A DNA stretch of 64,000 bases from Deltaproteobacteria bacterium (GTDB lineage: Bacteria > Bdellovibrionota_C > UBA2361 > JAFLCA01). A program made the position numbers and the translations under genes. Shown here piece after piece: positions 27,699-51,113 of this stretch. The stretch covers positions 1,118-65,117 of the forward strand of contig JAFLCA010000002.1 in NCBI GenBank assembly GCA_017302875.1. The letters run 5' to 3'. The notes under the pieces are model-generated. The model worked only from the letters and a program-made list of their open reading frames with translations, did no database searches and was not told the origin of the DNA. The first letter of the stretch is position 1. The number at the start of each line of letters is the position of its first letter.

Positions 27699-27716
27699 TC
27701 GCTATATCTGAGATAA

Positions 27717-29486: not shown

Positions 29487-29498
29487 CATCAGACGCTT

Positions 29499-34200: not shown

Positions 34201-35295
34201 AATCAAAAGATCGAGTTCGACACTCTCGATCAAGTCCTTCGCCACCTGGGACAGTGGTTGCTGCCTATCTTTTTAGCCTTCCTCCTACTCTCCTTTAAGA
34301 ATTTACGGAGAACTCCGATCCGAGAAATCGTAGGAAGGCTACTGCTTGGACTGTTCTTCGGCGCCTTCCCGTTGGGGATTTGTTTTCTTACGCTGCTCCC
34401 CGCGTTCGAAGGCCGCGTACCAGCTCTTCAAGATTTACCGTGGTCCATTCCGGCGCTGTGCTCCGGGATTTCCTTCTTGGCGGTGTTTGTCGGGATGGGC
34501 AAACGCTACTCCCACGCCGTCCGCATGGCTTCCGTGTTCTGCTACTGCGCCATGTTGCTCATTTCGGGTGCCGAGCTGTGTTTCCTGATGGATCACATGA
34601 ACACGATCTTCAAGTTCTACAACGCCGTGTGGATGCTGTGCGGCTTGTCGGTGGCCTGCCTCCTGCCAACCTTGGTGTTGGAGCTATGGAATTTGCGACC
34701 ACGACTGCTTGCCTACACCGTTGGAAGGCCTCTGTGCTTGGCCGTCACGTCTGTATTTGCAATTGCGTGCGCCGGCTCACTGATGAACATGCATACCATG
34801 GTGACTTTCCAACGTGTGGCCGGGCCACGCCCGACGCTCGATGGCATGGCATATCAGCACTGGATGTATCCGCAGGAGGGCGAAGCCATTCGCTGGATTC
34901 GCAAGAATATTCGCGGCACTCCAACCCTTCTTGAAGCGCACGGGGACTCCTATCAGAACTTCACGCGCATAAGCATGAACACTGGTTTGCCAACGGTCTT
35001 GGGCTGGAGCTATCACGTACAGCAGCGTGGCACAGCCGACATTTCCATCGCCGAACGTCGCCGGCTTATAAACGAAATCTACTCGGCGCCCGACCCTGAA
35101 TCCGCAGTGGCGAACCTACAGATGCTGGGAGTCGATCTTATTTACGTCGGACCTCTGGAACGCGAACTTTACGAACGCGGCACGTACAATAGAGCGGGTC
35201 TACGCAAATGGGACGAACACCCAGACGTGTTCCAGCCGCTTTTCCGCTCCGGCACGAGCGTTGTTTACAAAACAACCTGGGCAAGGCTACCGTAG
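31234..35295 (+). CDS. Fusion protein: N-terminal GT39/PMT_2-like glycosyltransferase + C-terminal DUF2298 / 'YYY' membrane domain
   Basis: 1353 aa (GTG at 31234; alternative ATG at 31270). The N-terminus has FRLYAITHGVTFHPDERH...VGRCVAAFFGVASILLTYLLAQRVY...HIQLSRFFAVD. The C-terminal half has GQVMRYYYFG, ITEYPLWALLFADLHAHL and MNTIFKFYNAVW, and is paralogous to the next gene. Confidence 0.7.
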   Translation: MHLSRLPATLTTMERLRFLSFRGLSRSTYCLLGVLLLGIFFRLYAITHGVTFHPDERHIVDVTTKLSRADMNPHSFAYGSFPFYFSWAVAQLLGLLWPSLMRYDGMFIVGRCVAAFFGVASILLTYLLAQRVYASRSVSILAAALVALNVFHIQLSRFFAVDIFLTAWCIAALVACVRLSQQNRARDYLLAGVSLGFAFATKISAMTLLAPLFVAIALHGIASNQLFSWRRIAWTVATLLLAGLVFLAVEPYAVLDSVTFLKNTKEQTDMVQGLWRPPYTIQYADTTPYLYVLSQMTFYTMGIPLALAVFLGFGYSFFRQFSKIRPAELVLLAWVIPLFLSFGGLQVKFPRYFLPIYPVLFVFAAHFLIEIGSALARTRVRFLRNVPTAIVVTWCFVYAVAFSRIYSVDHGYEIASRWIFQNVPAGSTILGVDWDDKLPLFLPGLDPRRFRAEGRAWELPLYGNETPEKLAEVSEKLARGDYIIFPTARTYGSIPRIPEEYVFTTNMLRLLFAEKLGYKLEQTIKIRPHFGPIEFNDDLADESLSVYDHPKISIFKKTEALSALDIRQRILDAYQYRPLPTLQDMLLADSGSGELATTTVRPTLLPTFLWLLILELLGLIALPFAMSLFPTAPDKGYGIAKTGGLLLVGASVWILGSLHWIPTNARCTWIILGMLAATAMFLFSRQHPSLRQILKQNHKPFLVGELLFLVGFFGFVILRAFQPEIFWGEKPMDFTFLNYFIRLESLPPQDPWAAGQVMRYYYFGSFLMALLHKLSGIDSAIGYNLSIATIAGLSLSGAYTFILICCRKIWPAVIGALAVLLMSNLEVLRLVFFSEKKGFDLFWASSRLYREPGITEYPLWALLFADLHAHLIVYPLIFLLLALATRFLHHERDSLTLSLVAHRFACGVVLSSLVATNSWDAISYGFLFGVLMLYRSLLVVVGRRGRFKRFCSALLDLLRDIPLVSLGILPIFVLFMLSSGSQVALGFGFNQKIEFDTLDQVLRHLGQWLLPIFLAFLLLSFKNLRRTPIREIVGRLLLGLFFGAFPLGICFLTLLPAFEGRVPALQDLPWSIPALCSGISFLAVFVGMGKRYSHAVRMASVFCYCAMLLISGAELCFLMDHMNTIFKFYNAVWMLCGLSVACLLPTLVLELWNLRPRLLAYTVGRPLCLAVTSVFAIACAGSLMNMHTMVTFQRVAGPRPTLDGMAYQHWMYPQEGEAIRWIRKNIRGTPTLLEAHGDSYQNFTRISMNTGLPTVLGWSYHVQQRGTADISIAERRRLINEIYSAPDPESAVANLQMLGVDLIYVGPLERELYERGTYNRAGLRKWDEHPDVFQPLFRSGTSVVYKTTWARLP

Positions 35296-35301
35296 AAGGC
35301 A

Positions 35302-37350
35302 ATGGAAATTTGCCTGACTGTCGCTCTCATCGCTCTCGCACTTTGCGCCGTAGGAATAGCTCCTTTTGAAGGAACGCTTGCCCTTCTATTGCTGACTCCT
35401 ATTTGCGCCTACCCTTTGGGTCTGCTTTTACCGGCGGGGAAACCACTCTACGTTATCTCCTTCGCCTTCCTTCTGACCTTGTTGATGGTTCTTAGCAAAG
35501 GCCGCTCGCTATATAGCCGCGATGAAGCCCTACAAGCACTTCTTCCCGTCGGCTATTTTGTAGTTTGCTTCTCAGTTTTTTCCTATCTCTGCCACTCGTG
35601 GCCGGACTTCTATCAACTAGGCGAACGTCTGCGTGATTTTGCCGTGCTGAGCGCGGTTATCAAATCTCCAATTGAAGCGCGTGAACCCTGGCTTTCGGGG
35701 TTTCCGCTAAATTACTACCTATATTGGTATCGCTTTGGGCATATGCTCAGCAGCGTGCTGAAGCTTCCAATCTGGGAAGTCTATCATCAGCTGCAAGCCT
35801 TCACCTTCGCGCTCTTTAGCACCTCGATTTTCGTGCTCTTTAGAAAGTATGCGAAGTTTCCAGTCTGGGGGGCGCTATTCACCGCCGCGATTATTACGCT
35901 TGGCTCAAACGCCGAGGGAATTTTGTACTTTATCAAGAACGACCCCAATTGGTGGGGGCCGTCACGAGTCATTCCGGGCGCAATCAACGAGTTCCCGGCT
36001 TGGTCGTTCCTTCTGGGCGACGTACACCCACACTATTTAAATCTGGGGCTAATTCCTTTTCTCTTGGGTATTTTCCTGTGCGTCTCACGCTCCACGCTGC
36101 AAATCGGCGCAAAATTATACTCTATTGTGGGCATACTGGCAGTTGGCACGTTGTGGTCGTACAACGCGAACGCTTGGGAACTTCCCGTATGGCTGGGTTT
36201 AAGCGCCGCGATCTTTACGAGCTCGCTTGCCGTTCTGCCTGTCGCTGAACTCAGAAAGATAGAGCGCCGAGACTTCCTGTCACTCCCGGCAGCTCTTATT
36301 GTCGCGCTCGTTGTCTACCTTGCTTACTCGCTGGCCCTTTCCTCTCTCAACATCGTTCCGGCGCACATGCCGTTAAAACTCGTCGAGATGCCGGTACCTC
36401 GTACCAGCGCCTTAGATTTGCTGCGACATTGGGGAATCCCGCTGGCAATCATCATTTTGAGCAGCATTCTTTCTTTACGAAAAATCGAATGGATGGTGAT
36501 TGCCGCGCTGGCATTTGGATTAGCTTTCGCCACTCGCAGCGCCATCGTTGTTCTGACTCTTACCTTCGTACTTGCCGCGTTGATAGCTTGGAATTCTCGC
36601 AAGGAGCCCGGCAGCGCAAGCTTAAGCAACTGCGTCTTCACGTCGATGGGGCTCCTCGCGCTCTTGCTCATTATATTTCCCGAATTGGCGTTCCTCGACG
36701 ACTCCTACGGCGGAGAAAACGAGCGAATGAACACCATTTTCAAAGCCTATAGCGCAGCTTGGTTTCTGCTGCACGGCTTTGCATTTTATTTGCTGGCGAA
36801 ATTGCCGAGAGCTTGGCTCAATCGCTTCCCGGACTTTCCGTTATTGCCCTTGGTGTTGGTGGTAGGAATTTTATGGATTGGATTTTTCTTCCGCACTATC
36901 AAACTCAGAAAGTCGAGCGAATTTGGCGTACAGCCTGCGGCACAAGGTCTTAGCGACATTGAAAGACGCTTCCCAGGTTCTGCAACCACGATACAGATTC
37001 TCACGAGAAGCCGTCCGGGAATTGTGCTGGAAGCGCAGGGCCCCGCCTATGACTTCACCTCACACATCGCGACTCTTTCGAGCCAGACTGCATACCTAGG
37101 CTGGGCAAACCACATCAATTTGCTTTTACAGGTATACCCGGAAGTTTCTCGCCGCGAGAAAATTACAGAAGATATGTACCGTGAAGCTGATTGCGCCAAG
37201 AAAAAGACTCTGGCGACTCAGGAACGCATCAACTACATAGTGCTGGGCCCGCTTGAAAAGCGCGCCTTCCCAGAAGCAAATGCAGAGCAATTTTCCTGCT
37301 TCAAGGAACTGATCAGGTCTAAAGAGTATCTGGTCTTCGAGAACCAATAG
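35302..37350 (+). CDS. DUF2298 / 'YYY'-domain polytopic membrane protein
   Basis: 682 aa. GFPLNYYLYWYRFGH, INEFPAWSFLLGDVHPHY, MNTIFKAYSAAW and YLGWANH align with the C-terminal half of 31234-35295. Confidence 0.65.
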   Translation: MEICLTVALIALALCAVGIAPFEGTLALLLLTPICAYPLGLLLPAGKPLYVISFAFLLTLLMVLSKGRSLYSRDEALQALLPVGYFVVCFSVFSYLCHSWPDFYQLGERLRDFAVLSAVIKSPIEAREPWLSGFPLNYYLYWYRFGHMLSSVLKLPIWEVYHQLQAFTFALFSTSIFVLFRKYAKFPVWGALFTAAIITLGSNAEGILYFIKNDPNWWGPSRVIPGAINEFPAWSFLLGDVHPHYLNLGLIPFLLGIFLCVSRSTLQIGAKLYSIVGILAVGTLWSYNANAWELPVWLGLSAAIFTSSLAVLPVAELRKIERRDFLSLPAALIVALVVYLAYSLALSSLNIVPAHMPLKLVEMPVPRTSALDLLRHWGIPLAIIILSSILSLRKIEWMVIAALAFGLAFATRSAIVVLTLTFVLAALIAWNSRKEPGSASLSNCVFTSMGLLALLLIIFPELAFLDDSYGGENERMNTIFKAYSAAWFLLHGFAFYLLAKLPRAWLNRFPDFPLLPLVLVVGILWIGFFFRTIKLRKSSEFGVQPAAQGLSDIERRFPGSATTIQILTRSRPGIVLEAQGPAYDFTSHIATLSSQTAYLGWANHINLLLQVYPEVSRREKITEDMYREADCAKKKTLATQERINYIVLGPLEKRAFPEANAEQFSCFKELIRSKEYLVFENQ

Positions 37351-37380
37351 TCCGCTAACGTTCCCGCATACGCGAAGAAC

Positions 37381-39366
37381 TTACTGCGGCTTCTGCGCCT
37401 CAGGATTTGCGTTCGCCTTGGGATTCACGAGGAACCATGCGTACGAATATCCGACCGGGCTCCACGGAGTATGATTCAAGGAATAGCCAAGAAATCGCTT
37501 CAGGGTCATCAGTCGCAAATCTGGAACCCACCAACCTCGTAAATTAATGCGCTGCGCGCGGAACTGCTCAGGCGCTGGCGGTTCATTGTCTTTCCAGTCA
37601 CGAATAATGTAGTCGAACTTCGCATACTCTTCGGCAGGAGCCTGGAATTTGTATTGCGGGATATCTCGCATATACCATGTCATTGGCCAGGTTGATTCTC
37701 CCATCACCAGGAGCTGAGGTTTGTACCCTTTTGTCTCCGTGGCAATCTCTTCCTTGATGGTGTTGGCGATGCCGTGAATTTCTTGAGTGGTATGAACCTG
37801 GCTTATGTACTCACGTGCTTCACCGGCATAGACATAGTTCGTCAAAATGGCCGCACGGGTCGTATAGATACAGAACAGCGCCAGCAAGAACCACTTCAAG
37901 TTCACGGTTCCGAGCATTCCAGCCGCGCGAAAGCTCATCCCCAACACGATCAGAAAAACTCCGCTCGCCACCCAGAAGAGATTCTCAGGGCTGCCTTCAT
38001 CAGCTGTGAAAAGAACGCCCAAGACAAGGACAATGATGCCCGTGCTGCGAATCAGTCGGGCCACCGAAAAATGCTGCCAATCGCTCACAGGAAAACGGCG
38101 GAAATAATCATCAAAATAGAGCGCTAGGTAGATCAAACCTGCAATGAAGGGGTACGTGGTCAGCCACGGAACCTTCTCCCCGAGATAACTGTACGTGCAA
38201 AAGTTTGCTAAGAACAAATAGCCAAAAAAGGCTAAGCGTCGATTGCGTTCAAGCAGGTGCACGACCGTCGTTAACACCGCCTGCGGCACTAAAATTAAAA
38301 AGCCGCACACGTCGTAGGCGTCCTTGAGCTTCAACAATCCGAGATACTTGTAGTCAGCGATCGTCTTGTCACTGAGGTATAGAGAAACGACCAAAGCCAT
38401 GACGAAAATAACAACGCCGCATACCTGCACCCAGCGCGCAGCGCTTCGGTAGAATGTCCAAAGGTACAAGCCAAAGGCGACAATGAAGGCCAATTCGTAC
38501 CAGGACAGCATATAGAAATGAAAAAGCCAGGGCCCGGTAATGCGATCGATATTGTGCTGATGCATCCAGTAGCCCAGGCTCTCGCGGTACAAACCGTCCA
38601 AGATACCCTGCATGTAACGGAATCCTGCACTGTAAAGATAGCAGTAAATGAAAACTCCCAAGCAGACAGCATTTAGCACCGCAAATGAGTGCGTCTTTAT
38701 GTGTCGAGCCATCTGCGCAAAGAGTGGGTTCTTATCTCCAAGCGCCTGAGCAGCGAAGCAATATTCAAACACCAAATAGCCGAACAAGATCGCGACCGTC
38801 ACATAGGCATTCTCTTTAATGCAGAACTGTAAGGTCAGTGCGACAAAAAAGATCAGCGCCTTACGACCGGGAGCGGCCAAGGTCGCGCCGTACAGCATTG
38901 CGACCATGCAGGCGATGATAAGCGTGTCCTCGCGTAAGAATCGGGACCAGTAAATTAGGGTCGGAGACAAAGCAACAGCCGCCGTAAGTGCCAATACTGC
39001 AAATCGCGAAAAGTAGTGCCGAAACAGGAAAGGAACAAAGATCAGACAAGAGCCAACGAAGTTAATCGGAACTCGCGAAGCCCAGTCTCCCTGACCAAGC
39101 GTGTTGTACACGATGCGATACAAATTATAGAGAAAGGGCCCGTGGAGGAGCGCTTGATAGCGATAGTAGTTCTGATCCGGGAAATCAAAAAAATATTTCC
39201 CATACATGCCATGCAAGGACTCATCGTGATGAAAGGGACGCATGTCCAGGGCGAACCAGCGCAGCAGCAAGCCCCCGGCAATCAGAAGGACAAACACGCC
39301 CCATTCCAGTGGGGAGAAGAAATCACGCGCACGCGACTCAGGGGGAGCGGTCTGCTCTAGACTCAT
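37381..39366 (-). CDS. TIGR03663-like / GT39-like polytopic membrane glycosyltransferase
   Basis: 661 aa. LLLRWFALDMRPFHHDESLHGMYGKYFF...LLHGPFLY...ALSPTLIYWSRFLRED pattern. Confidence 0.6.
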   Translation of the reverse strand: MSLEQTAPPESRARDFFSPLEWGVFVLLIAGGLLLRWFALDMRPFHHDESLHGMYGKYFFDFPDQNYYRYQALLHGPFLYNLYRIVYNTLGQGDWASRVPINFVGSCLIFVPFLFRHYFSRFAVLALTAAVALSPTLIYWSRFLREDTLIIACMVAMLYGATLAAPGRKALIFFVALTLQFCIKENAYVTVAILFGYLVFEYCFAAQALGDKNPLFAQMARHIKTHSFAVLNAVCLGVFIYCYLYSAGFRYMQGILDGLYRESLGYWMHQHNIDRITGPWLFHFYMLSWYELAFIVAFGLYLWTFYRSAARWVQVCGVVIFVMALVVSLYLSDKTIADYKYLGLLKLKDAYDVCGFLILVPQAVLTTVVHLLERNRRLAFFGYLFLANFCTYSYLGEKVPWLTTYPFIAGLIYLALYFDDYFRRFPVSDWQHFSVARLIRSTGIIVLVLGVLFTADEGSPENLFWVASGVFLIVLGMSFRAAGMLGTVNLKWFLLALFCIYTTRAAILTNYVYAGEAREYISQVHTTQEIHGIANTIKEEIATETKGYKPQLLVMGESTWPMTWYMRDIPQYKFQAPAEEYAKFDYIIRDWKDNEPPAPEQFRAQRINLRGWWVPDLRLMTLKRFLGYSLNHTPWSPVGYSYAWFLVNPKANANPEAQKPQ

Positions 39367-39414: not shown

Positions 39415-40776
39415 CTATACTTTGAAGGTGCTCTCCTCAACACCCTTCAGCATATAGTCAGCCCATTCCACGCCCTGCATAAAGGAGTGATCCTGATTGG
39501 CGACCTCGTATTTCCAGCCACCGAATCGGCCTCGCGAGTAAACGCCCAGCTTTTGAAGGGCCGGCATCACGTCCTTAATAATGGCATCACGCTCCAATGA
39601 CGGGGTCGGATACCCGTATGGAGCATGGAAGGTCCACGTCGATACGATCTGATCTTTGTCGGAAATGAGCTTGGTATTACGCAACCCGGAAATGGTCTCC
39701 TCCAGAAGCGTTTTGTGGTTCACTGGTTTTGCCGGAGACTCGCTGGTTTCAGTCATCAGAGAAAACTGCGTCTTTATATCAGGAACATTGAGAGGACTGT
39801 ATTTGGAAAACAAAGTGACGCGGTAGAAGGGACAGTCGCTTTCCGGAAAGTACATCCAGCATTTGCTTTCAAGTTCAGGCTTGGGCTGTCCGCGTAGTCC
39901 CACGCCAACAATATTTGTTGAAGAATACTTCAGACCACCTGCGCGTTGCTTTAGGGCATCCGGTATTTCACTAACCAGCCCTGCGCAAATATCAAGCGGC
40001 ATGGTTGAGAGCAGATGCTCATACTGCACGCTGCTTCCATCCGAGAGCAGCACCGAGCGCTCTTGAGCATTAATTCTAGTGACGGTGCAGTTCGTGCGGG
40101 TCTTATCAGCTCCTACCATCTTGCCGACGGCATGCCAGATTGCACCAGTTCCTCCCTGCTTGGGAAAACGAAATTTGTTGTTCGGCCCCCAGGAAACATC
40201 ATCGCGCTCAAGTATTACATTCTCGAGCACTCGGTTCAGATCAACAACTGAAACTCGCTCCCCGATCCAATGATAGGCCAGCTCAGTAAGCGGATAGGCC
40301 CATACCTTGAAGTTATAGGGGTTCATGAACTCTTCGCCGATTCCGGCACCAAAGATCGACTGCGTCCATTCCGCAAAGTTCGCGGGCTTACGGGCAAGTG
40401 GATTCTTGGTGATTTCAATGATGCCCTTGAGGCACTTCCACACGGATTCTTTAGGCAGATAGCGAATGTTATTTTGGAAGGGATAGGGCACGAAGCGATT
40501 CTTTATCCATACCCAAGACTCTCGTTCATGCTCGAGCCAGCCGTCCTTGCCGAGCGATAAATCCATGACGTCATCGAAATACTTGTAGTGCGAGAACTGC
40601 ACGTGCCCGCCGATATCCCACCAAAATCCGGCATCATCTTTAAAGCTCGTGGCTAGCCCACCAACCCAAGGGTTTTTCTCCAGCAGTAAATAGTCCTGCT
40701 CGCCGAGATCTTTGAGACGATAGGCAGCACCAAGCCCTGTCGGGCCGGCACCAAGGATGAGGTATTTTACTTTCAT
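39415..40776 (-). CDS. glf: UDP-galactopyranose mutase, eukaryote-type (long form)
   Basis: 453 aa with FAD motif ILGAGPTGLGAAYRL. Shared blocks include GGHVQFSHYKYFDD, VPYPFQNNI, PYNFKVWAYP, WIGERV and WGPNNKFRFPKQGGTGAIW. Further blocks are CWMYFPESDCPFYRVTLFSKYSP, YGYPTPSLERD and SRGRFGGWKYEVANQDHSFMQGVE. These match my recollection of fungal/protozoan UGM sequences. Confidence 0.7.
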   Translation of the reverse strand: MKVKYLILGAGPTGLGAAYRLKDLGEQDYLLLEKNPWVGGLATSFKDDAGFWWDIGGHVQFSHYKYFDDVMDLSLGKDGWLEHERESWVWIKNRFVPYPFQNNIRYLPKESVWKCLKGIIEITKNPLARKPANFAEWTQSIFGAGIGEEFMNPYNFKVWAYPLTELAYHWIGERVSVVDLNRVLENVILERDDVSWGPNNKFRFPKQGGTGAIWHAVGKMVGADKTRTNCTVTRINAQERSVLLSDGSSVQYEHLLSTMPLDICAGLVSEIPDALKQRAGGLKYSSTNIVGVGLRGQPKPELESKCWMYFPESDCPFYRVTLFSKYSPLNVPDIKTQFSLMTETSESPAKPVNHKTLLEETISGLRNTKLISDKDQIVSTWTFHAPYGYPTPSLERDAIIKDVMPALQKLGVYSRGRFGGWKYEVANQDHSFMQGVEWADYMLKGVEESTFKV

Positions 40777-40789: not shown

Positions 40790-41566
40790 TTAGCGTCCGC
40801 GCAAATTTAGAGCAGCACGCTGGGCTTTAATATCCTTGAGTGCGGAGGGAAGCGCCAATCGAAAATCGATTAATTCTCGCACGCAGCGTAAGCAGGCTTT
40901 TATAAGTCGCCAGCGAACAATAGAGACAGTTCCCGTTTCGCGTTCGCGATGCGTTATTGGAATAGCCATCAAGTCTTGACCGTCGCGCGCGGCCAGAACT
41001 GCCAAGAAAATGTTCGGTGCAAAAACTGTTGGGTTAATATGCCCAAGCAAAATCTTTAAGTAGTCACCCTGAATGAGCCTGAATGGAATATTGGAGTCCC
41101 GCAGCCAGGAGCCAAAGAGCACAAAATTTAAAACGCGCAGAATGCGAGTGATAACGAGTCGATGGAAAGCATCGTGGCGGTCACGACGAAACCCTAAGAT
41201 AAAATTTGACTGCGAGCGCTTATTCCAAAGTATCGCGAGCTCTGCACTATCGAACTGATCGTCGCTGTCGACATGGAAAACCCATTGCGCACCAAGCTCA
41301 ACAGCCTTGTCGTAGGCTGTCCGTAAGGCCTTACCATGCCCGCCGTTAGTCTGATGCACCACCACAAGTTTCGGGTAGGTTTTAGCCGCCTCATCAAGCA
41401 TGGCGCCCGTACGATCTTTTGAACCGTCGTTGACGACGATTAACAGTCCCGATTCGAGACCAAGGCCGTCGATGGCGCTGATCCATTTTTTGACTACGTC
41501 TTTAATGCAGCCCTCTTCGTTGTAGGCCGGCATAACGATGCAAAGTTCAGGGCGCGAAGTCGGCAT
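40790..41566 (-). CDS. Glycosyltransferase family 2, Dpm1/Ppm1-like (candidate polyprenyl-phosphate hexosyltransferase)
   Basis: 258 aa. CIVMPAYNEEGCI...VVNDGSKDRT...GGHGKALRTAY...HVDSDDQ GT-A motifs. The polyprenyl-phosphate acceptor is inferred from its position next to the GT-C genes. Confidence 0.6.
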   Translation of the reverse strand: MPTSRPELCIVMPAYNEEGCIKDVVKKWISAIDGLGLESGLLIVVNDGSKDRTGAMLDEAAKTYPKLVVVHQTNGGHGKALRTAYDKAVELGAQWVFHVDSDDQFDSAELAILWNKRSQSNFILGFRRDRHDAFHRLVITRILRVLNFVLFGSWLRDSNIPFRLIQGDYLKILLGHINPTVFAPNIFLAVLAARDGQDLMAIPITHRERETGTVSIVRWRLIKACLRCVRELIDFRLALPSALKDIKAQRAALNLRGR

Positions 41567-41812
41567 GAGGTACCTGGAATTTAAGGAACTGTATTAACAG
41601 CGGTTTTTTCTAAAGCTAGCCGGTTTAGGCAGTAACTTCAATAAGTTAAATAACTTAGTCGTCAGCTTTTAGATGCGGCTAAACGACAAACTCCAGACTC
41701 AAATTAACGCAATAATATTAGTGGGTTAAAGATTATTTGAAGCATTGTTATATTTCCTGCTGATAGATAAGTGGGGGACAGGGTGTGAAGTGTGCAATCG
41801 CGAGAGATTCGT

Positions 41813-42358
41813 ATGCGTGTGTCATCAAAATCCCCCCTTCGAGAACGCGGCGGCGTTATCACCGAGTGCGTGCTGGTAATCCCCGTCATGCTGGTTCTCT
41901 TTACCGGCCTTACTGAGCTGGGTCGAACCTTCTCCCAGATAAACTGGGTCGCCAATATTTCCTACGAAGTTGCTATGGTCGGCGCCAGCGTATCCGAGAC
42001 TGCCGGTGGCGCGCTTGCAATGGACGGGCGCTATGCTCAGCTTAGTGCGATTCCGTACTACAAAGTCACCTTGCCGAGCGATCCAACCTCCAAGGTCTAC
42101 AATCAGACTGACCTACACGTCAGCGGGCAACCACCTCGAAGCGTTGAAGTTGCTATCCATGCGACACTACCCACGTTGCTGTCACATGTATCACCCACCT
42201 TTGACGTACGCGCGACCGCGCCGATTTTGGTGCTTTCGAATGTGCTCCCGGGGGGACTCAGCACCTTTAGCAATCCAAATCCGCTTTATGACTGCTGCGG
42301 CCGCGAGTATTCGGGCGCGCCCATTGATACGTGCTTGAATCCCCCGCCCGCTTGCTAG
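41813..42358 (+). CDS. TadE-like pseudopilin-type protein (cassette A, gene 1)
   Basis: MRVSSKSPLRERG|GVITECVLVIPVMLVLFTGLTELGR is a TadE-type N-terminus with Glu at +5 after the Gly. The upstream GTG at 41792 is an alternative start. The C-terminus is Cys/Pro-rich. Confidence 0.65.
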   Translation: MRVSSKSPLRERGGVITECVLVIPVMLVLFTGLTELGRTFSQINWVANISYEVAMVGASVSETAGGALAMDGRYAQLSAIPYYKVTLPSDPTSKVYNQTDLHVSGQPPRSVEVAIHATLPTLLSHVSPTFDVRATAPILVLSNVLPGGLSTFSNPNPLYDCCGREYSGAPIDTCLNPPPAC

Positions 42359-42502: not shown

Positions 42503-43900
42503 ATGCGTTTGTTTTCTCGTAGAATTTTCAGCAGCAAGCTTCCCGCCCAAGACGGTGCCTCATTTATTGAAGCGGCGCTGACGTTGCCAATATTTTTGAT
42601 GGTGCTTCTCTTCACTATCGACATGGCGCGCTTCTTCTTTATTTGGGCAGTGATTAATTTTGCCGCCCACCACGCGGTCGATTACGCTGCGAAGATCGAA
42701 GTCGAGGCGCGAACAGATGAGGCAAGCTGCTTCTCGCAACCGGCAAGCTGCACCGATTATCGAAATCGAATTTTATCTCCAACCGGCGTACTCGCCAAAG
42801 CCGAGAGGTACGCGAAATATGCCGCAACCGAAGGCCCCAGTGCTTCCCAACTTGTCCCTTTTAATCACTATTGGAACCCGGACTACACGCAAGCACCGCC
42901 TGCTGGCCACTATGGATCAGGCCTTGTTGCGAGCGGCAACATTCGATTGGCAGGATTTTTACGCCCTGGCGAGTACATTCGCCGAGAAGACGGGAGCGGG
43001 CAGTTTATAGAGCATCCGACCCGTAAGCCTTTAACGGATCACTTGTATTGGCCTGGAATCAGCGAGAACTGGGCGACTATTTTAGAGAACAATCCGCTGC
43101 TCGTGCACATCGAAGTGCGCTTCAAGGCAGTAACACCGTTCATCCCTGAGTTGCGCATCGTTGCCAATCAGATTGCGTATCGCCGCAGCCGTACGCCGGG
43201 AATCGGCGGGCCGATTACTCCAATTCCATCGAACACCCCAACAGCGACAGCAACGGCGACGGCATCCAACACGTTCACGCCGCGACCTTCAGAGACAGCA
43301 ACCGCGACCGCTTCTCCGACGGAGACGACCACTCCGACGCAGACGGCAACCATGACACCAACGGGCACCGAGACCCCAACGGCAACTCAAACTCCCACGG
43401 GAACCGCTACTCCAACTTTTAGCCCGACTGGAACGGTAACCCCAACGCCATCGCTATCACCAACGCCGACGCAGACGCCAACATTTACGGCAACGCCAAC
43501 AGCTACCCCAACTCCGACACCGACGGGTACGCCAACGCCGACACCAACGTATACGACTAGCCCCACACCAAGCATCACTCCGACCGAATCGCCAACGGGA
43601 ACCGTAACTCCAACGGCCACTCAATCTCCCACGGCCACACAGTCGCCAACTCCATCGTTAACGCCGAGTGAAACACCGACAGCCACGGCAACACCGACTC
43701 ACACGGCCACACGCACGCCTACAGCAACCCCAACTCCGAGCCTCACGGCGACTGCAACGCCCACGCATACGGCAACTATAACACCAACTCCTACTCATAC
43801 ACCGACGGTTCATTGTGGTGATTGCGTAACGAATGGCTGCCAGCAGGACTGTCGTGAATACTGTTGTTCAAGTGGCTGCGGCGATTTGTGCGGAGGATAA
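42503..43900 (+). CDS. TadE-like N-terminus + globular domain + Thr/Pro-rich stalk + Cys-rich C-terminal tail (cassette A, gene 2)
   Basis: 465 aa. ...PAQDG|[28 protein letters not shown] at the N-terminus. Residues about 231-436 are almost entirely T/P/A/S. The last 28 aa are [28 protein letters not shown]. Confidence 0.75.
43193..43810 (+). repeat. Degenerate in-frame ACN/CCN repeat region encoding the Thr/Pro stalk
   Basis: Runs of TPTATxTPTxT peptide units, seen in the nucleotide sequence as repeated acg/aca/acc-cca/ccg/ccc codons. The mirror V/G-rich ORFs on the opposite strand are artefacts. Confidence 0.85.
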
Positions 43901-43958: not shown

Positions 43959-46184
43959 ATGCGCCAAGAAAAAGGTCTCTATATCGTATTCTTCGCTCTC
44001 CTGCTTTTCGTGCTGCTCGGATTAGTGGCGCTGGCGCTCGGCCTCGGCTACATCGGCACTAATAAGACTCGCCTGCAAAATGGCGTCAACTTAGCCGCTC
44101 TCGCGGCGCTTGAGAAATTCGCCGGTTTACCTCAGAGCGATTCGTACCTAGTGCGCGCCGACAAAGCCCGCGATCGGGCGAGTGAGATTTTTGCAGCAAA
44201 TATTTTACCCGGTGTAGAGCACCCCTTGGGAGAACTTGGCCACCATGGCGCAGCCGGGCCCGGTGGAACAATTACCCTTGGCAACTGGTATCAGAAGAAA
44301 CCAAATCCCGTCGACGATCCCTGCACGGGAAGCTACCCCTGCTTCGTCGCGAACCCCGATCCAAGCGGTTCCGTGCCTAACAACCAACCAATGAATGCAG
44401 TGCGTATTGAAGCCCACAATCAAAGCAACAATCCGCTGCTTTTCAGACTTGGAAGATTTTTAGGAAAAGATAGCTTCATCCTGTCGTCGAGCGCCACAGC
44501 GACGGTCGTTCCACGCTGTACCGCGTACTTGATGGACGTTAGCGATTCATCTTACTTCGAAACTCATCCAACGTTGCCGATTGGATCAAGCCAGGTAAAT
44601 TCCTGCATTACTCCTGGCAGTGTTCCCCCGGCCTGCCCGGACCCTAGCTGCCTTCCCGGATGTTTAGCCGGAGAACCTGCATGTTATGGCGGCTGTAATC
44701 CTTACAAAACAGCGAATTTAAGCGTCACACCGATTAATTTTGGTCTTGGCGCATATCGGTATAGCCCTCAGTACACGCCAACTCATTTGGAATGCGCAGC
44801 TTCGACGAACTACGATCTGGGCAACCAACTTTCCCGTCAGACAGTGTATTGGTGTAACTCGCCTCATATTGGCGCCCCTGATGGAGCACGTCCCGGCGTT
44901 CCACCTTCCTCAGGCATCTTCCGTCACTATCAGTCAGACTATGAACTAGAAGATTCACCGCTTCCAGGAGGCGGCGTTGGTCAAATCTGGGTTGATAAAC
45001 TGTATGTCGCAGGGGCAACGGCGGCAGACCCAGTGTACGATGGTCCGCAACCCTTCACTCGGAATTTTTTGGCCTTCAACGCCGGGCTGCGACAAGTTCA
45101 GTCCACGACAGTTGGCGGAGATCTTTCCTATATCATGGCTTTCACCGGACAGCCGCGCAGTTCAGTTCCAGCCACGGGATTAACTTCGGATTTGGGATTC
45201 CTGATTCAATTAACCAATCTCGACAACCGTGGAAAAAGAGATTGGCAAGGCGTTCCTGTAACTACAGAAATCCACCCCAATTTTATTGATTTCGGCTGGG
45301 CACCGTTTCCGGGCGAAGGATTCGACTCAACCAGCGCGATTGGAAATGCTGTGTATTTCGCAGCCGAGCGCCTTCACTCCAGCTGCCCGTCGCAGTCGCG
45401 CAAAACTATTTTGCTGGCATCTGACGGACAAGCCAACACTCACTTCGGCGCGATTCCGGAACCGCAGGGCCTAAACGGATACAACAACTATGTCGCAGCC
45501 GTAAATCAACTTCTTAATACTTCGATCCCGGTACTCGGCGGCGGCCCCAATAAACCGCCGATTCTACAGATGCTCAAAGAGTATGAAATTTCATTCTCGA
45601 TGATTATGGACGGGTTCCATATTGCACCGAACTTTCTCAACATAGCGAGCGGTGAGTGCGGAGCGGCGTCGACTTGGACACCGGGTTCCGGCTTCGGAAA
45701 TGACGACCCGAAGTGCTATTTTTCCTTTCAGGAAGGTTACGCGCACGGCTTTGGCGGCAAACGTTCCCCTTCGCCCCTGTTTGACTGGGAAAGCTACGAC
45801 CCCTCTGGAACACCGACCGATCCAGCGACCGCGTACGACAACGCCGGAAGAATTCCTGGCTGGTCATTCGGAGATCCGATTGGGGTATGGAGCGACGTTG
45901 CGCTGGAGACCGGCGGGTATTTCTGCCCACTTCTGGCAGTTGCGCCAGTCGGGCAGTATGTCGACTTTTATGGCGATCGCGGCGGAGCTGCTTGTGATGC
46001 TCCCTGTCCAGGCGGGGTAAATTGCAGCCCCTGTGTACTACGCAGCGCGGCACGAAATCCCAATCCAGGTCAAAACATTCAGAAGTTTGCACCGCAGTAC
46101 ACTAGGAAAAGCGAGCAGGCAGCGCAGTGCGCGCGTCAGGCAGTTGGACTCAATCCATTTACCCTGGTCGAGAAAGACAATTAA
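43959..46184 (+). CDS. TadG-like protein with N-terminal hydrophobic helix and vWA domain (cassette A, gene 3)
   Basis: 741 aa. MRQEKGLYIVFFALLLFVLLGLVALALGLGYIG matches the Tad/TadG N-terminal pattern. MIDAS DVSDS at 44535-44549, later LLASDGQAN. Good AAGAGG Shine-Dalgarno. Confidence 0.7.
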   Translation: MRQEKGLYIVFFALLLFVLLGLVALALGLGYIGTNKTRLQNGVNLAALAALEKFAGLPQSDSYLVRADKARDRASEIFAANILPGVEHPLGELGHHGAAGPGGTITLGNWYQKKPNPVDDPCTGSYPCFVANPDPSGSVPNNQPMNAVRIEAHNQSNNPLLFRLGRFLGKDSFILSSSATATVVPRCTAYLMDVSDSSYFETHPTLPIGSSQVNSCITPGSVPPACPDPSCLPGCLAGEPACYGGCNPYKTANLSVTPINFGLGAYRYSPQYTPTHLECAASTNYDLGNQLSRQTVYWCNSPHIGAPDGARPGVPPSSGIFRHYQSDYELEDSPLPGGGVGQIWVDKLYVAGATAADPVYDGPQPFTRNFLAFNAGLRQVQSTTVGGDLSYIMAFTGQPRSSVPATGLTSDLGFLIQLTNLDNRGKRDWQGVPVTTEIHPNFIDFGWAPFPGEGFDSTSAIGNAVYFAAERLHSSCPSQSRKTILLASDGQANTHFGAIPEPQGLNGYNNYVAAVNQLLNTSIPVLGGGPNKPPILQMLKEYEISFSMIMDGFHIAPNFLNIASGECGAASTWTPGSGFGNDDPKCYFSFQEGYAHGFGGKRSPSPLFDWESYDPSGTPTDPATAYDNAGRIPGWSFGDPIGVWSDVALETGGYFCPLLAVAPVGQYVDFYGDRGGAACDAPCPGGVNCSPCVLRSAARNPNPGQNIQKFAPQYTRKSEQAAQCARQAVGLNPFTLVEKDN

Positions 46185-46414: not shown

Positions 46415-47230
46415 ATGCGTGACTACACTTCATTGAGTCCTCGTTCCCTCAAGCGAGCTAACATGAAAGGTTCAGTCCTGCTGGAGTTCGCTATCGTCGT
46501 GCCCCTTCTGGTGGTCTTTTTTCTGGGCATCTCCGGAATTGGACAGCTACTTGGGCATGTAACTTGGATCTCACAAACGACCTACGCTGCGGCTCTCTTC
46601 GCAGCCGACGTGCCGCAGCCTGACGGGCCAGCTAAAGTTCAGCAAGCTACCGAGCGTTTAAGCGAAGCTCAAAATCGAGGTCAAGTCAGCGGTGATTGGA
46701 ATGCGCCAGTCTACACCGTAGGACAGATCACAGGCAAACCCATTGTAAGCGTAAGCGTCCCTGCGAATGTTTCGCCTCTCGTAAGCGCCATGTTTTCATC
46801 CAGTATCGGTGTGAGCGTAGCAGCTCCCTACCTTGTACCGAGCCAAGCAGCCTTCGCTGGGTTTAACGATTTTGCCAATCCCTCTGGCATCGTTACCTGC
46901 TATGCAGCCTCTTGTAACCCGATCGCACCGTATAATCCCGGGATTAGGAAAATAACCACCTTACCGGGTGAGACGAATTACGCTTACTATAATCCCACGA
47001 ACGAAGAGTCCACGAGAGCTTTTGAAACCTTTATGTCCACCATGGGCGGCCTGGATCGAAGTAGTCCGACTTACATAGAGGATGCTGCTGCTACGTACGA
47101 GAAGCTTATGTCAGCTTTTGAGGGTGCTATTTCCAACGATCCCTCGCTAGCCAAAGCGCTGACTCGATTGGACCCGATGACGACTGAATCGAAAAAAAGC
47201 ACCCGTACAGAGTATACGATTCTAGATTAG
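46415..47230 (+). CDS. TadE-like pseudopilin-type protein (cassette B, gene 1)
   Basis: 271 aa. ...SLKRANMKG|SVLLEFAIVVPLLVVFFLGISGIGQ TadE-type N-terminus with Glu at +5. Confidence 0.65.
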   Translation: MRDYTSLSPRSLKRANMKGSVLLEFAIVVPLLVVFFLGISGIGQLLGHVTWISQTTYAAALFAADVPQPDGPAKVQQATERLSEAQNRGQVSGDWNAPVYTVGQITGKPIVSVSVPANVSPLVSAMFSSSIGVSVAAPYLVPSQAAFAGFNDFANPSGIVTCYAASCNPIAPYNPGIRKITTLPGETNYAYYNPTNEESTRAFETFMSTMGGLDRSSPTYIEDAAATYEKLMSAFEGAISNDPSLAKALTRLDPMTTESKKSTRTEYTILD

Positions 47231-47339: not shown

Positions 47340-48818
47340 TTGAGCTTCCCGTTTCGTAAAATTTTCCGATTGCCGCCTGCCTTGGCCCGCTGGGGTTCCC
47401 AGCGCTCAGAGCTTGGCGCCTCCATTCTGGAAGCGGCTATCTCCCTGCCGATCTTCTTCTTATTTATTTTCTTCTTGATCGATCTCGCCCGGTACTTTTT
47501 CATCTACGCGATTCTGAACTATGCGGCGTACAGCGGAGTGGATCTCGCTTCAAAACTCGAAGTTGAAGCCAATACAACTGTCACCGGCTGTGCCGCAGAA
47601 TCGACCCCCTGTGCTCGTTATGGAAATTCAGTCGCCTCCATTTTAGATCGCACTACACGCCTCGCGTATTTAGTTGCGAGCCCCTCAACCGTCGCAAGCG
47701 GAGCTCGACTACAGTCATTCGCTCACTACGTTCCTTCGATGTACGACAGTGGGCAGAACAATTCGGGCCTTAGTCCGTTTTTAACGGTACCCTTTTCAAA
47801 AGATGCTGCTTTTCTTCGTCCGGGAGAAGTCGTTTGTCGTAATGGAACCTGCGATTCGCCTAACCAGGTTCAGCACAACTTTCGAGAGTACGGAACCGGA
47901 ATTGGAAAAGGCTGGCCTTCAGACAATGAAAACTGGGCGTCGATTCTAGAAAGCTCCCCCTTAGAGATGCGACTTGAAGCAGAGTTTACGCCGGTTACTC
48001 CATTCTTCCCACACCTTAGAATTCACGCCGTGCAGTACGCCTACCGCAGCGTGAAGAAGGCGGGCCGCCCCTATAGCTTCGTCTCGGCACCCACAAATGC
48101 GCCTTCAGCAACTTCGACGATGACACCGACCTCCACCCCGGTGCCGCCTTCACCGACACCGCCCGTCACGCCTACGGCGACCCTCTCTCCGACGACGACG
48201 GTAACTCCGACAGCCACCAGCAGTCCGACGGCAACAACGAGTCCGACCGCGACCATTACGCCGACTAATAGCCCAACAGCCACGCAGACCCCGACTGCAA
48301 CGAATTCGCCGACGGCCACAAACAGCCCGACGGCGACGAGCACTCCGACTTTGAGCCCAACTGCGACTAGAAGCCCGACGCCAACTCAGACCCCCACGGC
48401 GACGAACAGTCCAACACCAACTGCGACACCTTCAAATTCGCCAACATTTACGTACTCGCCAACTGCAACACACACGCCAACGGCGACTAGTACGGCAACG
48501 CCAACCGTCACTCCGACTTTCACCCCGACGGCTACGTCGTCGCCAACAGCAACACAGAGCCCGACGCCAACGTTATCGCCAACCCCAACAGCTACGGGAA
48601 CTGTTACTCCGACAGCGACACTCTCGCCGACGGCTACCATTACCCCAACGGCAACTTCAACGCCGACAGCGACACAGCGTCCTGAGTGCGCCAACTGCGC
48701 TTGCGGAAACACCGGGTCATGCTGCAGCCAGGCGGGGATGATGTATGTGTGTAACGTACTTTGTGGTGGCATTCCGCTGTGCGGTCAAGCGAATTGCTGC
48801 CCAGGAACGGGCGGATAG
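47340..48818 (+). CDS. TadE-like N-terminus + globular domain + Thr/Pro-rich stalk + Cys-rich tail (cassette B, gene 2); paralog of 42503-43900
   Basis: 492 aa with TTG start. ...SELG|[28 protein letters not shown] at the N-terminus. Residues about 250-447 are T/P/S/A-rich. The tail is [43 protein letters not shown]. Confidence 0.75.
48087..48680 (+). repeat. Degenerate in-frame ACN/CCN repeat region encoding the Thr/Pro stalk
   Basis: SPTATxSPTAT / [11 protein letters not shown] peptide units. Opposite-strand V/G-rich ORFs are artefacts. Confidence 0.85.
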
Positions 48819-48866: not shown

Positions 48867-51113
48867 ATGAAAATCTCGGCGAATCACTCCAAGAATGAGA
48901 AAGAACGGGGACTATATCTAATCCTCGTGGCTTTTTTCATTTTCGTTCTTGTTGCCCTGTGCGGCCTGGTGATTGGTCTTGGGTTTCTCTCTACCAATCG
49001 CTCTCGCCTTCAGAACATTGCTAATGTCAGCTCTATAGCGGCACTCGACGGCTTCATCCAAGCTCGCAATCCTTCTACAGGGGATCCCTTGGCGTACGAT
49101 GTTCGAAAGACTGTCGCGATGAACCGCGCCAATGAACTAATTGTGGCGAATAAGAAACTACCGGGAGTCCGGTTTGATCTTGGGGAAGTTGGACTGGCCC
49201 CTGCAGGAGGCAATGGCGGTAAACTAACAGTCGGAATGTGGTATCCGGAAATACCCGCTACCGGAACACCGTGCGGAGCCAATGCCTCCGACTACCCTTG
49301 CTTCCGGGAGAATCCGGTCGTGCCCACAGGAACGCCGATAGCCAATGCGGTGAGACTCGAAGTATTCAGTCAACCGACAAATCCTCTAATTGCTCCCTTC
49401 GCATCCTTTTTTGGTCAACATGGAATTACTCTTAACACGACCAGCATTGCCCGCGTCGTTCAACGTTGCGTAGTGTTCCTGCTAGACGTTTCACTATCCA
49501 CAGTTCAGGAGACTCATTTATACGGCAGAAATGCGCCTGCCCCGCTGCCTCCCGATCCGGCATGCATTCCTCCGGAGCTCGGTGGAGCCTGCACGCCGTT
49601 GATGCAGGTGACGCTCGCTCCGACGCCGGCACTGGTTATCAGCGAACCGCAGCCGCCATCGCTTTTTGCCTATCGCGTAAGTGCGCTTGGCCCGCTTGCA
49701 TCGCGCACTCCGCCGCTGACTCCGCCACCATTTCCAACGCCGAACCCGTGTCAGAATCTGACGAGCTATTGGGCGGCCAATTCCGGGGAAGATCTGCTCT
49801 ATTTTTGTAATATGAAGACTTCGCGTACGGGATTTATGTCCCCGCCGTATGTTCAGCATTATCGCTCAGATTACCGGATCCACCCCTCGATATTTGGCGA
49901 CGTCTTCATTGATAAATACGAGGAGAATATCAACACGTACGTTGGTCCAGAACCGCTTAGCCGATTCTTCCTTTCCTTTAACGCGGGGCTGCGTGCGGTT
50001 AATCAGGTGCGATCGCCTGGCGACAAGGCGCTGCTATACGTGTTTACGGGCAAAGCAGTCGGCACAGAGCCGCAATCCACGCCTCCAACCTACGAACTGA
50101 CCGAGAACCTAAATTCGCTTATTCAACTGACAAATATTTACAACCGTGGAACCATCGATCGAAACGGAGCCATCGTACACCCAGTCGTAACTCCGAACTT
50201 CGTATCACGCGGATTTTTCCCGATTCTTGCTTCGAGCGCTGACACCATTAGCACCACTACGAACTTAGGCCTGGCACTTTGGGACGCGATTGGAGCCCTC
50301 AGCAGCTGCCCGGACTCTGCTCGACGTTCCATCATCGTAGCCACAGACGGGATTCCGAGTTGTGGTTGGAATACACAAGGCAGCCTTAACGGCACCCCGC
50401 GTCCCGATCCCATTTTTGACTGCCCTCCACCGACGAACGGCGATTACTACACCAATTACCTTCAGGCAGAACAATCCATTCTTGGCCCCATCAAGGATGA
50501 ACTGGTCCGACGCGGCATTTCAGTGACTGCGCTGCTCGACGCTGAAAACATTCAACCAAATTTTATAAATGCAACGATTCCTCCCGGAGCCGGCACACCG
50601 ACAGGAGACTTTGTGGACCCTGAAGATGCCGCTCAGAACGGATTCTGCGCCGGAGTTCCAACTCCGATTGGAGGCGGCGCCGCACCTTGCGATAAACCAT
50701 TCTTCCTCTCTAGCCCTGTAATTCCTGACGAGGCACTGGGCCCGTACAATGCCTGGGTGGCAGGCGGACCCTCAGCCCCCGTGGACTACGATCATTTCGC
50801 ATTCAAGTACAGCGACACCCCAAATTTAGGAGTCAAATTCCGCCGTCCCAACGCACTATGGGGACAGCTTGCACTCGACACCCAAGGCGTCATTTGCCCG
50901 TTATTGCCAGAGTGTCCTCCACAGGCGTACGCTCCGGGAATTCCTCCAAATCCGCCGCAGATATTGCCGACCTGGAGACAAGGTATGTCCGTTATGGACT
51001 GCTCTCCAGCCAAACAGAGTAAGGCGCAACAAGCGGTGAACTGCGTGCTTGCAGCGATTGGCGTGAACCCATATCAGAACGTCGAAGAAATTCCTCCAAC
51101 CGTTGCTCCATAA
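48867..51113 (+). CDS. TadG-like protein with vWA domain (cassette B, gene 3); paralog of 43959-46184
   Basis: 748 aa. KERGLYLILVAFFIFVLVALCGLVIGLGFLS at the N-terminus. MIDAS DVSLS at 49485-49499, later IVATDGIPS. Colinear with 43959-46184 over the whole length. Confidence 0.7.
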   Translation: MKISANHSKNEKERGLYLILVAFFIFVLVALCGLVIGLGFLSTNRSRLQNIANVSSIAALDGFIQARNPSTGDPLAYDVRKTVAMNRANELIVANKKLPGVRFDLGEVGLAPAGGNGGKLTVGMWYPEIPATGTPCGANASDYPCFRENPVVPTGTPIANAVRLEVFSQPTNPLIAPFASFFGQHGITLNTTSIARVVQRCVVFLLDVSLSTVQETHLYGRNAPAPLPPDPACIPPELGGACTPLMQVTLAPTPALVISEPQPPSLFAYRVSALGPLASRTPPLTPPPFPTPNPCQNLTSYWAANSGEDLLYFCNMKTSRTGFMSPPYVQHYRSDYRIHPSIFGDVFIDKYEENINTYVGPEPLSRFFLSFNAGLRAVNQVRSPGDKALLYVFTGKAVGTEPQSTPPTYELTENLNSLIQLTNIYNRGTIDRNGAIVHPVVTPNFVSRGFFPILASSADTISTTTNLGLALWDAIGALSSCPDSARRSIIVATDGIPSCGWNTQGSLNGTPRPDPIFDCPPPTNGDYYTNYLQAEQSILGPIKDELVRRGISVTALLDAENIQPNFINATIPPGAGTPTGDFVDPEDAAQNGFCAGVPTPIGGGAAPCDKPFFLSSPVIPDEALGPYNAWVAGGPSAPVDYDHFAFKYSDTPNLGVKFRRPNALWGQLALDTQGVICPLLPECPPQAYAPGIPPNPPQILPTWRQGMSVMDCSPAKQSKAQQAVNCVLAAIGVNPYQNVEEIPPTVAP

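Follow-up and report, generated by a model that had tools for sequence, protein, structure and literature searches.

We analysed a 64,000-nt stretch of contig JAFLCA010000002.1 (positions 1,118 to 65,117; GCA_017302875.1, hereafter the window), which carries two genes for paralogous, stalked minor pilins. Protein A (465 amino acids [aa], 42503-43900, + strand) and protein B (492 aa, 47340-48818, + strand, TTG start as listed) share one layout: a TadE-type prepilin N-terminus, a globular head of ~215 residues, a stalk of ~200 residues and a Cys-rich C-terminal tail. A reading made earlier from the letters alone (the sequence-only reading) had placed the stalks at nt 43193-43810 (residues 231-436 of 42503-43900) and nt 48087-48680 (residues 250-447 of 47340-48818), and these coordinates matched exactly. 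It had also assigned the proteins a type IVb N-terminus; Pfam instead identified them as TadE (PF07811), that is type IVc (Tad), with 34.0 bits for A and 41.3 bits for B, both above the gathering cutoff of 22.9 bits. The findings below are best explained if each stalked protein is the middle one of three minor pilins encoded by a tip cassette, serving a Tad (type IVc)/Kil-like pilus of a Bdellovibrionota-type bacterium.

Stalk A (residues 237-437, 43211-43813, +) comprises 201 aa, including 84 T, 43 P, 21 A and 15 S (T+P 63%; T, P, A and S together 81%). Stalk B (residues 246-449, 48075-48686, +) comprises 204 aa with 78 T, 43 P, 27 S and 24 A (84% for the four residues). The low-complexity T/P/A/S composition proposed for both paralogs was therefore confirmed. 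Ser and Thr make up 49-51% of both stalks and Pro 21%, and charged residues number 3-7 per ~200 (7 in A). In a six-frame scan of the 64 kb, T/P/S reached at least 60% over 30 residues in stalks A and B alone. The repeat units had been described as irregular TPTATxTPT; we found strict alternation instead. In stalk A, 97/99 Ser/Thr lie in a single dipeptide register across 201 residues with zero register slips, and a Ser/Thr is followed by another at +2 in 95% of cases and at +1 in just 4%. Stalk A is an alternating (S/T-X)n copolymer of ~100 dipeptide units, with X = Pro in 43 of them. Stalk B follows the same rule with 43 Pro, 90 of its 105 Ser/Thr sharing one register. Pro occupies X in ~43% of units of these stalks, the remainder being A, V, I, L, Q, N, G and R, and Pro-Pro spacings are nearly always even, with peaks at 6 and 12 residues. 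All orthologs of A and B that were examined alternate like A. An AlphaFold2 (AF2) model of A, built from a 36-sequence alignment, left stalk and tail unstructured (predicted local distance difference test [pLDDT] 38-53), with no secondary structure in the stalk, which fits the extended spacer of the sequence-only reading, or a disordered one. Both stalks are thus long, low-charge, non-globular Ser/Thr/Pro segments of an exported protein and, given the pilin topology, are expected in the periplasm or outside the cell.

Each stalked gene is the second of three, preceded by a small TadE-like gene and followed by a TadG-like gene of ~745 codons. Cassette 1 opens with a small TadE-like minor pilin of 188 aa (41792-42358, +; Pfam TadE 25.6 bits, cutoff 22.9; site G|GVITE) and closes with a TadG-like large minor pilin of 741 aa (43959-46184, +; Pfam Tad PF13400 35.3 bits, Tad_C 21.9 bits). 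Cassette 2 opens with a small TadE-like minor pilin of 271 aa (46415-47230, +; Pfam TadE 24.5 bits; site G|SVLLE) and closes with a TadG-like large minor pilin of 748 aa (48867-51113, +; Pfam Tad 19.2 bits, below the cutoff of 22.3). Identity between the cassettes is 27% for the small proteins, 42% overall for the stalked proteins (BLASTP, E = 8e-42) and 31% for the TadG-like proteins (BLASTP, E = 7e-84). The duplication is old, and both copies still keep stalk and tail. All three cassette proteins are Cys-rich; the TadG-like protein of cassette 1 contains 20 Cys along with an N-terminal transmembrane (TM) segment. It carries a DxSxS motif at residue 193 and its paralog carries one at residue 207; the motif was conserved in 8/8 TadG-like partners examined, at about residues 193-215. 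The window sites lie at 44535-44549 (MDVSDSS) and 49485-49499 (LDVSLST), and an SDG motif follows later in all TadG-like partners. These motifs suggest that the TadG-like proteins may contain a split von Willebrand factor A (vWA)/metal ion-dependent adhesion site (MIDAS)-type domain; Pfam called no VWA domain in them. NCBIfam held no model matching any of the six cassette proteins. A promoter and terminator scan of 41.4-51.4 kb returned fewer sites than in shuffled sequence, and operon boundaries are therefore not claimed.

The four TadE-like cassette proteins all display a Gly with Glu at +5 and a hydrophobic helix next, the motif that marks the predicted cleavage site. Gly with Glu at +5 is the site type of the Tad prepilin peptidase (TadV substrates). 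In protein A, which has one TM-like segment, the site G18|ASFIE separates a leader of residues 1-18 from a head extending from residue 19 to ~236; in protein B the prepilin-peptidase-type site is ELG|ASILE, after Gly26. The AF2 model of A gave the head a pLDDT mostly >90, with a helix at residues 16-64 and then an alpha/beta domain to ~230. A short-linker homolog (from locus L004, below) was modelled with the same head and a low-confidence tail. Searching the PDB with both models (Foldseek) returned no match at E<0.1; the pilin assignment accordingly rests on the TadE N-terminal domain, the cleavage motif and the gene neighbourhood.

Four loci with full-length relatives (L001-L004) emerged from a scan of GTDB species genomes, all in metagenome-assembled genomes (MAGs) of Bdellovibrionota/Oligoflexia. 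Each holds the same cassette, with a middle gene that encodes a TadE N-terminus, a head of ~230-270 aa, a linker and a Cys tail. L001 and L002 are also syntenic with the window (DUF2298, TIGR03663, GT2, cassette, transketolase, AhpC-like, hydrolase, gyrB), which places the window in a Bdellovibrionota genome related to theirs. A metagenome contig scan gave a single partial match (L018). No record was identical to A or to its TadG-like neighbour, and a word-indexed search for homologs of the head of A came back empty; the wider family surfaced via an exhaustive HMMER search of 1.84 billion representatives with both heads as queries (420 matches at E<1e-3, 116 at E<1e-10). About 120 metagenomic protein clusters share the architecture, and the named members, from MAGs of Bdellovibrionales and Oligoflexia, bear "pilus assembly protein" as their sole annotation. 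The stalked TadE family is sizeable and apparently specific to Bdellovibrionota. The three-gene cassette was conserved in every context examined (twice in the window, and in L001-L004, L009, L010, L012-L017 and L019-L024). Some relatives hold a third or divergently oriented extra cassette (L003 17191-19107, - strand; L013 2-1325, - strand), so that copy number varies among genomes from 1 to at least 3.

At the DNA level the stalks show at most weak periodicities of 12-24 nt (Tandem Repeats Finder; 61-85% matches, scores 38-73). Exact repeats do not exceed 13 nt (A) or 14 nt (B), lengths no greater than expected from synonymous-codon shuffles that keep the protein (mean longest repeat 13.7 nt and 14.2 nt, respectively). 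The sequence-only reading had noted degenerate codons, no long perfect repeats and no recent slippage, and all of this held. Its proposal of selection on composition was right as to selection and understated the constraint. Because synonymous sites are randomised and the hydroxyl positions are almost invariant, the Ser/Thr position itself must be under selection, residue by alternate residue, beyond composition. Low-complexity DNA can mis-assemble, and stalk length differs among lineages, as might be seen if the region were an assembly artefact or a recent neutral expansion by slippage. The absence of repeats above the shuffle level speaks against this, as does a reading frame kept into the conserved Cys tail. 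Furthermore, N-domain, stalk and Cys tail recur in one frame in more than 15 independent assemblies (L001-L004, L009-L023) and in both ancient paralogs, with the Ser/Thr register conserved position by position. We assign an artefact a negligible probability and exclude it on the strength of this conservation across assemblies and paralogs. Val/Gly-rich (VAVGV...) antisense open reading frames lie opposite every stalk (- strand; window 48071-48343 and 48386-48772, L002 7363-7863, L003 9219-9812 and 14062-14649). They are reverse-complement shadows of ACN/CCN codons and not genes, and are easily mis-called as such.

Stalk length, which the sequence-only reading had thought likely to vary between strains, differs widely among related genomes. 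With the stalk delimitation used for A and B, linkers measure 30 aa in L004, 204 and 228 aa in L003, 235 and 309 aa in L002 and 243 aa in L001; a family-wide measure gives 43 aa for L004 and 327 aa for L002_2, and across the two measures the eight close homologs span 30-327 aa. Family linkers range from 5 to 327 aa (median 52). A linker of at least 20 aa is present in 103/117 Cys-tailed members, and T+P make up at least 50% of the linker in 65 of those 103. The earlier remark that a Pro/Thr stalk is unusual in such pilins thus stands against the literature searched but not within the family itself, where a low-complexity linker is the norm. Long family linkers also alternate (S/T at +2 in 0.85-0.93 of cases), and a few members (~220 aa) have no extension at all. 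Other members depart from the Thr/Pro pattern (P0006, P0024, P0019, P0030 and P0057): some have poly-Thr/Ser (76-88% S/T), Gly-rich or acidic linkers and others have much larger Cys-rich C-termini containing as many as 92 Cys. The module that follows the head evidently evolves very readily.

The sequence-only reading included neither the conserved Cys-rich module at the C-terminus nor the three-gene tip-cassette context. With both in view, the stalk reads functionally as a tether that connects a pilin head to a terminal knob, and no longer as a segment internal to a pseudopilin. Module A (28 aa, 8 Cys, 43814-43897, +) has the pattern C-x2-C...CC...C, conserved in orthologs L001_1 and L002_1; in the 36-sequence alignment two Cys are invariant (Cys438, Cys450) and three others at least 90% conserved (C441, C454, C463). 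Module B (43 aa, 10 Cys, 48687-48815, +) has the pattern C-x2-C-x-C...CC...CC, which recurs in L003_1 and L003_2. The tails in the L001-L004 relatives always contain 8 Cys (27-32 aa) or 10 Cys (40-44 aa), and the terminal module matched no Pfam family. Cys residues downstream of the head were counted in the 141 members whose head is complete: the count is even in 124 members and odd in 2, while 15 have no Cys there, and 6 (35 members) and 8 (32 members) are the most frequent values. Because counts are near-universally even and include 6, 10 and 14, intramolecular disulfides are favoured over tetra-Cys metal sites. A metallothionein or Zn-site tail was rejected on the same grounds: counts of 6, 10 and 14, none of them a multiple of 4, occur often, and 124 of the 126 Cys-containing members have an even count. 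Purifying selection acts on the Ser/Thr register and on the terminal Cys module, whereas lineages are free to differ in stalk length.

In the small subunit of cassette 1 a short Cys-rich tail, LYDCCGREYSGAPIDTCLNPPPAC (window 42280-42358), forms the C-terminus and is kept in the orthologs (L001 9740-9821, L002 6235-6309; CLYDCNGTLISVGGACCTDSSCTPSTCP and CLYDCSGVLITPCCASSACAPSTC). The small subunit of cassette 2 has no Cys tail and carries an acidic C-terminal extension instead.

The closest parallel is the Kil (Tad-like) pilus of Myxococcus xanthus, whose KilL/KilM/KilN Tips are encoded in stand-alone, paralogous clusters and are disulfide-rich (Herrou et al. 2025, PMC12075869). The same study predicts Tips in Bdellovibrio bacteriovorus (Bd0114/Bd0115/Bd0148) and in Bradymonas; its tip1-4 hidden Markov models match Myxococcota only, and the Bdellovibrio tips were found by structure alone. 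The cassettes described here likewise consist of three adjacent TadE-, TadF- and TadG-homologous genes, occur as stand-alone paralogous clusters away from core machinery (two in the window, 1-3 in relatives), include one subunit with a C-terminal extension and a large TadG-like subunit, encode Cys-rich proteins and come from a predatory lineage. This likeness to KilL is one of gene arrangement and architecture. The extension differs: in place of a folded wrap it is a 200-residue (S/T-X)n stalk followed by a Cys module of 28-43 aa. The text of PMC12075869 has 0 mentions of a Thr/Pro-rich, linker, disordered or glycosylated segment, and we found no description of a stalked, knob-ended Tad pilus-tip arrangement in the literature searched. 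The stalked cassette is a variant of the Tad/Kil tip minor-pilin cassette that is undescribed in that literature. Canonical TadE/TadF/TadG proteins (Aggregatibacter, Pseudomonas, Caulobacter) share the TadE domain, the G|xxxxE site and a Tad/TadG-type partner. Canonical TadE and TadF are ~150-200 aa, lack low-complexity stalks and are encoded in the tad operon. Here, by contrast, the head alone is ~215 aa and has no solved relative, the C-terminus is a stalk and knob, and core tad genes are missing from the 64 kb.

In the Kil system the KilL extensions are modelled as wrapped around KilN and KilM, and the Tips contain many disulfides (PMC12075869). By analogy, stalk and Cys tail could serve as a structural clamp that wraps and locks the TadG-like and small TadE-like partners, the Cys module being an intra-complex docking piece; the Cys-richness of all three proteins and the strict conservation of gene order and partners fit such an arrangement. 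A fixed docking geometry would not, however, accommodate linkers of 5-327 aa beside a TadG-like partner that stays at ~700-810 aa: the 43-aa linker of L004 is paired with a 765-aa partner and the 327-aa linker of L002_2 with one of 713 aa. Moreover, the even Cys count points to self-contained pairing, and AF2 did not pack the tail on the head. We regard the clamp as unlikely. A further alternative is that the proteins are periplasmic pseudopilins, anchored in the inner membrane with a stalk that spans periplasm and peptidoglycan and a Cys module that contacts the secretin or outer membrane, as an alignment or measuring element and not a tip. TadE and TadF were historically named pseudopilins and went undetected in fibres, and Pro/Thr- or Glu/Pro-type rods span the periplasm in TonB-like proteins. 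Linkers with contour lengths of ~1.5-100 nm (5-327 aa) nevertheless mismatch a fixed periplasmic width, and according to current models and genetics TadE/F/G homologs sit at the tips of pili. This role is very unlikely in our judgement; a variable linker with a partner of near-constant size argues against both the wrap-around clamp and the periplasm-spanning ruler.

Glycosyltransferase genes adjoin cassette 1 in the window. A GT2 gene (258 aa, 40790-41566, -; Pfam Glycos_transf_2 62.9 bits) is divergent from the cassette, with 225 bp of intergenic DNA between them. Among solved structures its product is most closely related to undecaprenyl-phosphate-sugar synthases (ArnC, E = 1.9e-11 over residues 8-232 in the PDB, and GtrB too), and its orthologs in L001 and L002 are 62-64% identical and hold the same position. 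A second candidate partner is a 661-aa TIGR03663 (Agl23-like) membrane protein of glycosyltransferase class C (GT-C) type with ~9 TM-like segments (37381-39366, -; NCBIfam 219.3 bits, cutoff 126.25), whose orthologs in the same two loci are 54-56% identical and syntenic. The two genes are separated by one for an FAD oxidoreductase (39415-40776) with weak UDP-galactopyranose-mutase similarity (18 bits). A GT2 with a GT-C enzyme is the standard arrangement for periplasmic-face glycosylation from polyprenyl-phosphate-monosaccharides (compare PMC11127046). No Pmt equivalog (GT39) was found in the window, where the best NF058602 score was 25.4 bits (31234-35295) against a cutoff of 800. The TIGR03662/TIGR03663 families have been described mainly from Chloroflexi and Archaea.

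The association recurs in relatives. In L012 the immediate upstream neighbour of the cassette encodes a PMT/PMT_2 protein, and in L020/L021 it encodes a 10-TM PMT_2-like protein (25.0 bits vs a cutoff of 26.1), with a Wzy_C protein 4 kb away in L020. Since the window, L001 and L002 share wider synteny, their GT-C adjacency was counted once, which leaves a GT-C gene beside the cassette in 3/~10 independent contexts (window/L001/L002; L012; L020/L021). A rough binomial calculation gives P ~1e-5 for this co-localisation, with the background (<=0.4%) assumed, not measured. Three such co-localisations are far above expectation for a class with few copies per genome, and this evidence is circumstantial. 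The gene context supports O-glycosylation of the stalk, which is plausible but unproven.

Precedents exist for both the substrate and the chemistry. Actinobacteria O-mannosylate Pro/Thr linkers (PMT/GT39 with Ppm1), and Ser/Thr/Pro linkers join fungal cellulases to a disulfide-bonded CBM1 (compare PMC5939190 and PMC11727336). In these systems, as here, a Thr/Pro-rich extended linker joins a larger domain to a small Cys-bonded terminal module, and the actinobacterial genomes encode a polyprenyl-phosphate-sugar synthase-type GT2 and a GT-C transferase, which in the window are adjacent. The host here is, in contrast, a diderm member of the Bdellovibrionota, the carrier is a type IV pilin, the GT-C enzymes are of TIGR03663/DUF2298 type and not GT39, and glycosylation is predicted. 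TfpW adds D-arabinofuranose to group IV type IVa pilins of Pseudomonas aeruginosa (bioRxiv 10.1101/2020.04.19.049825). Its GT-C gene also lies beside the pilin gene, and it modifies pilin Ser/Thr in the periplasm via a polyprenyl-phosphate-linked sugar, a precedent for the proposed chemistry; the likeness is one of genomic placement and of proposed chemistry. The TfpW target is a folded major type IVa pilin with few sites, unlike the ~100 Ser/Thr proposed here in the disordered stalk of a Tad minor pilin.

We favour, with guarded confidence, the reading that the stalk is probably an O-glycosylated extended spacer presenting a disulfide-knotted module at the tip of a Tad pilus. The prepilin would be cut after Gly18 (A) or Gly26 (B), as the G|xxxxE motif predicts. 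By analogy with the KilL/M/N Tips, its hydrophobic alpha1 helix would then form a bundle at the pilus tip together with two partners, the small TadE-like subunit and the large TadG-like subunit that carries the MIDAS-like motif; the stalked protein would be the TadF/KilL-like member of the complex. From its sequence, the (Ser/Thr-X)n segment is predicted to be extended and non-globular, a spacer whose contour measures 40-62 nm. Hydroxyls at alternate residues would probably be O-glycosylated in the periplasm by the neighbouring polyprenyl-phosphate-sugar-dependent GT-C enzymes, as the gene context suggests, and the glycans would stiffen the stalk and shield it from proteases. At its end the spacer would display a small C-terminal module held in a knot of 4 or 5 disulfides; the pairing is suggested by the even Cys counts. 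More speculatively, the module, on its tether, could make contact with or bind a surface or a prey cell.

Several findings weigh against parts of this scheme. AF2 did not fold the Cys module confidently, even in the short-linker homolog (pLDDT 38-59), and the Foldseek search produced no solved pilin that resembles the head. Core tad genes (T2SSE ATPase, secretin, platform, Flp) were not found in the 64 kb, and the cassettes of A and B do not lie within a tad locus (tadA/B/C, rcpA, flp) in that stretch; the tad genes of B. bacteriovorus are likewise dispersed (bioRxiv 10.64898/2026.07.08.737194). About 7/10 independent contexts have no GT-C neighbour (for example L009, L014, L019 and L022), the three that do use different GT-C subfamilies, and the L012 GT-C protein is nearest, weakly, to ArnT, a lipid A-modifying enzyme. 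Glycosylation, tip localisation and any ligand all stand as predictions.

The scarcity of GT-C neighbours and the ArnT-like enzyme of L012 are also what one would expect if the stalk were an unglycosylated entropic or rigid spacer, a bare (S/T-X)n rod or brush like the X-Pro repeats of TonB, with the nearby glycosyltransferases serving unrelated envelope glycans. Lipids or polysaccharides could be the acceptors of the GT-C cluster in the window, which is large. A bare spacer does not readily account for a hydroxyl that is near-absolutely conserved at alternate positions beside a freely variable X; stiffness alone explains this poorly because just 43% of X residues are Pro. It also leaves unexplained why genes as rare as those for GT-C enzymes adjoin the cassette as often as they do, given the assumed background. 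We consider a bare spacer improbable, and retain the glycosylated spacer as the working interpretation.

In its most specific form, a real but minor possibility, the glycosylated spacer would be a bottle-brush "fishing line" at a Bdellovibrionota Tad/Kil-type tip. A dedicated polyprenyl-phosphate-sugar/GT-C pathway would densely O-glycosylate a (Ser/Thr-X)~100 tether tens of nm long, whose 4- or 5-disulfide mini-domain would make the first specific contact with prey or surface or be membrane-active, and the paralogous cassettes would supply alternative tethers and knobs. If true, glycosylation of a Tad minor pilin would be a first, and the tip would represent a new kind of pilus architecture.

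Target recognition by Tad pili is an open question. Recent work gives interchangeable minor-pilin Tips a central part in prey recognition and killing by predatory bacteria, and the tip domains it describes are all folded. In B. bacteriovorus the tip protein TadG is needed for prey invasion (bioRxiv 10.64898/2026.07.08.737194). A TadF/KilL-like subunit with a long, position-conserved Ser/Thr tether and a disulfide-rich end would be a new structural element for pilus tips, and suggests that the reach of a tip, through stalk length, can evolve separately from its specificity, through the sequence of the knob. The stalk is also a concrete candidate substrate for the poorly understood bacterial TIGR03663, DUF2298 and PMT_2 GT-C enzymes. 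Finally, the (S/T-X)n register, kept strictly for 200-300 residues, shows a natural positional rule with unusual clarity inside a "low-complexity" region.

Beyond the TIGR03663 gene lie further membrane-protein genes, all on the + strand: a PMT_2 protein (25515-27698), large and polytopic; two unassigned proteins with 7 and 11 TM segments by TM counts (27717-29486 and 29499-31142); a 1353-aa PMT+DUF2298 fusion with ~25 TM-like segments (31234-35295); and a DUF2298 protein (35302-37350) whose gene is conserved in L001 and L002. The interval 25515-39366 thereby holds an unusually dense set of six large polytopic membrane proteins, GT-C type or unassigned. The cluster at 25515-37350 may belong to the same glycosylation system. 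A phmmer search of the PDB with the TIGR03663 protein and the PMT+DUF2298 fusion gave no match. Among the relatives, a T2SSE-type ATPase gene lies 4 kb upstream of the cassette in L014, and MotA/MotB genes adjoin the cassette in L012 and L022. In the window, a VKOR-thioredoxin/DsbA fusion of 481 aa with 5 TM-like segments, a disulfide-forming system, is encoded at 22548-23993 (-), 18 kb from the cassettes whose products hold 8-20 Cys each.

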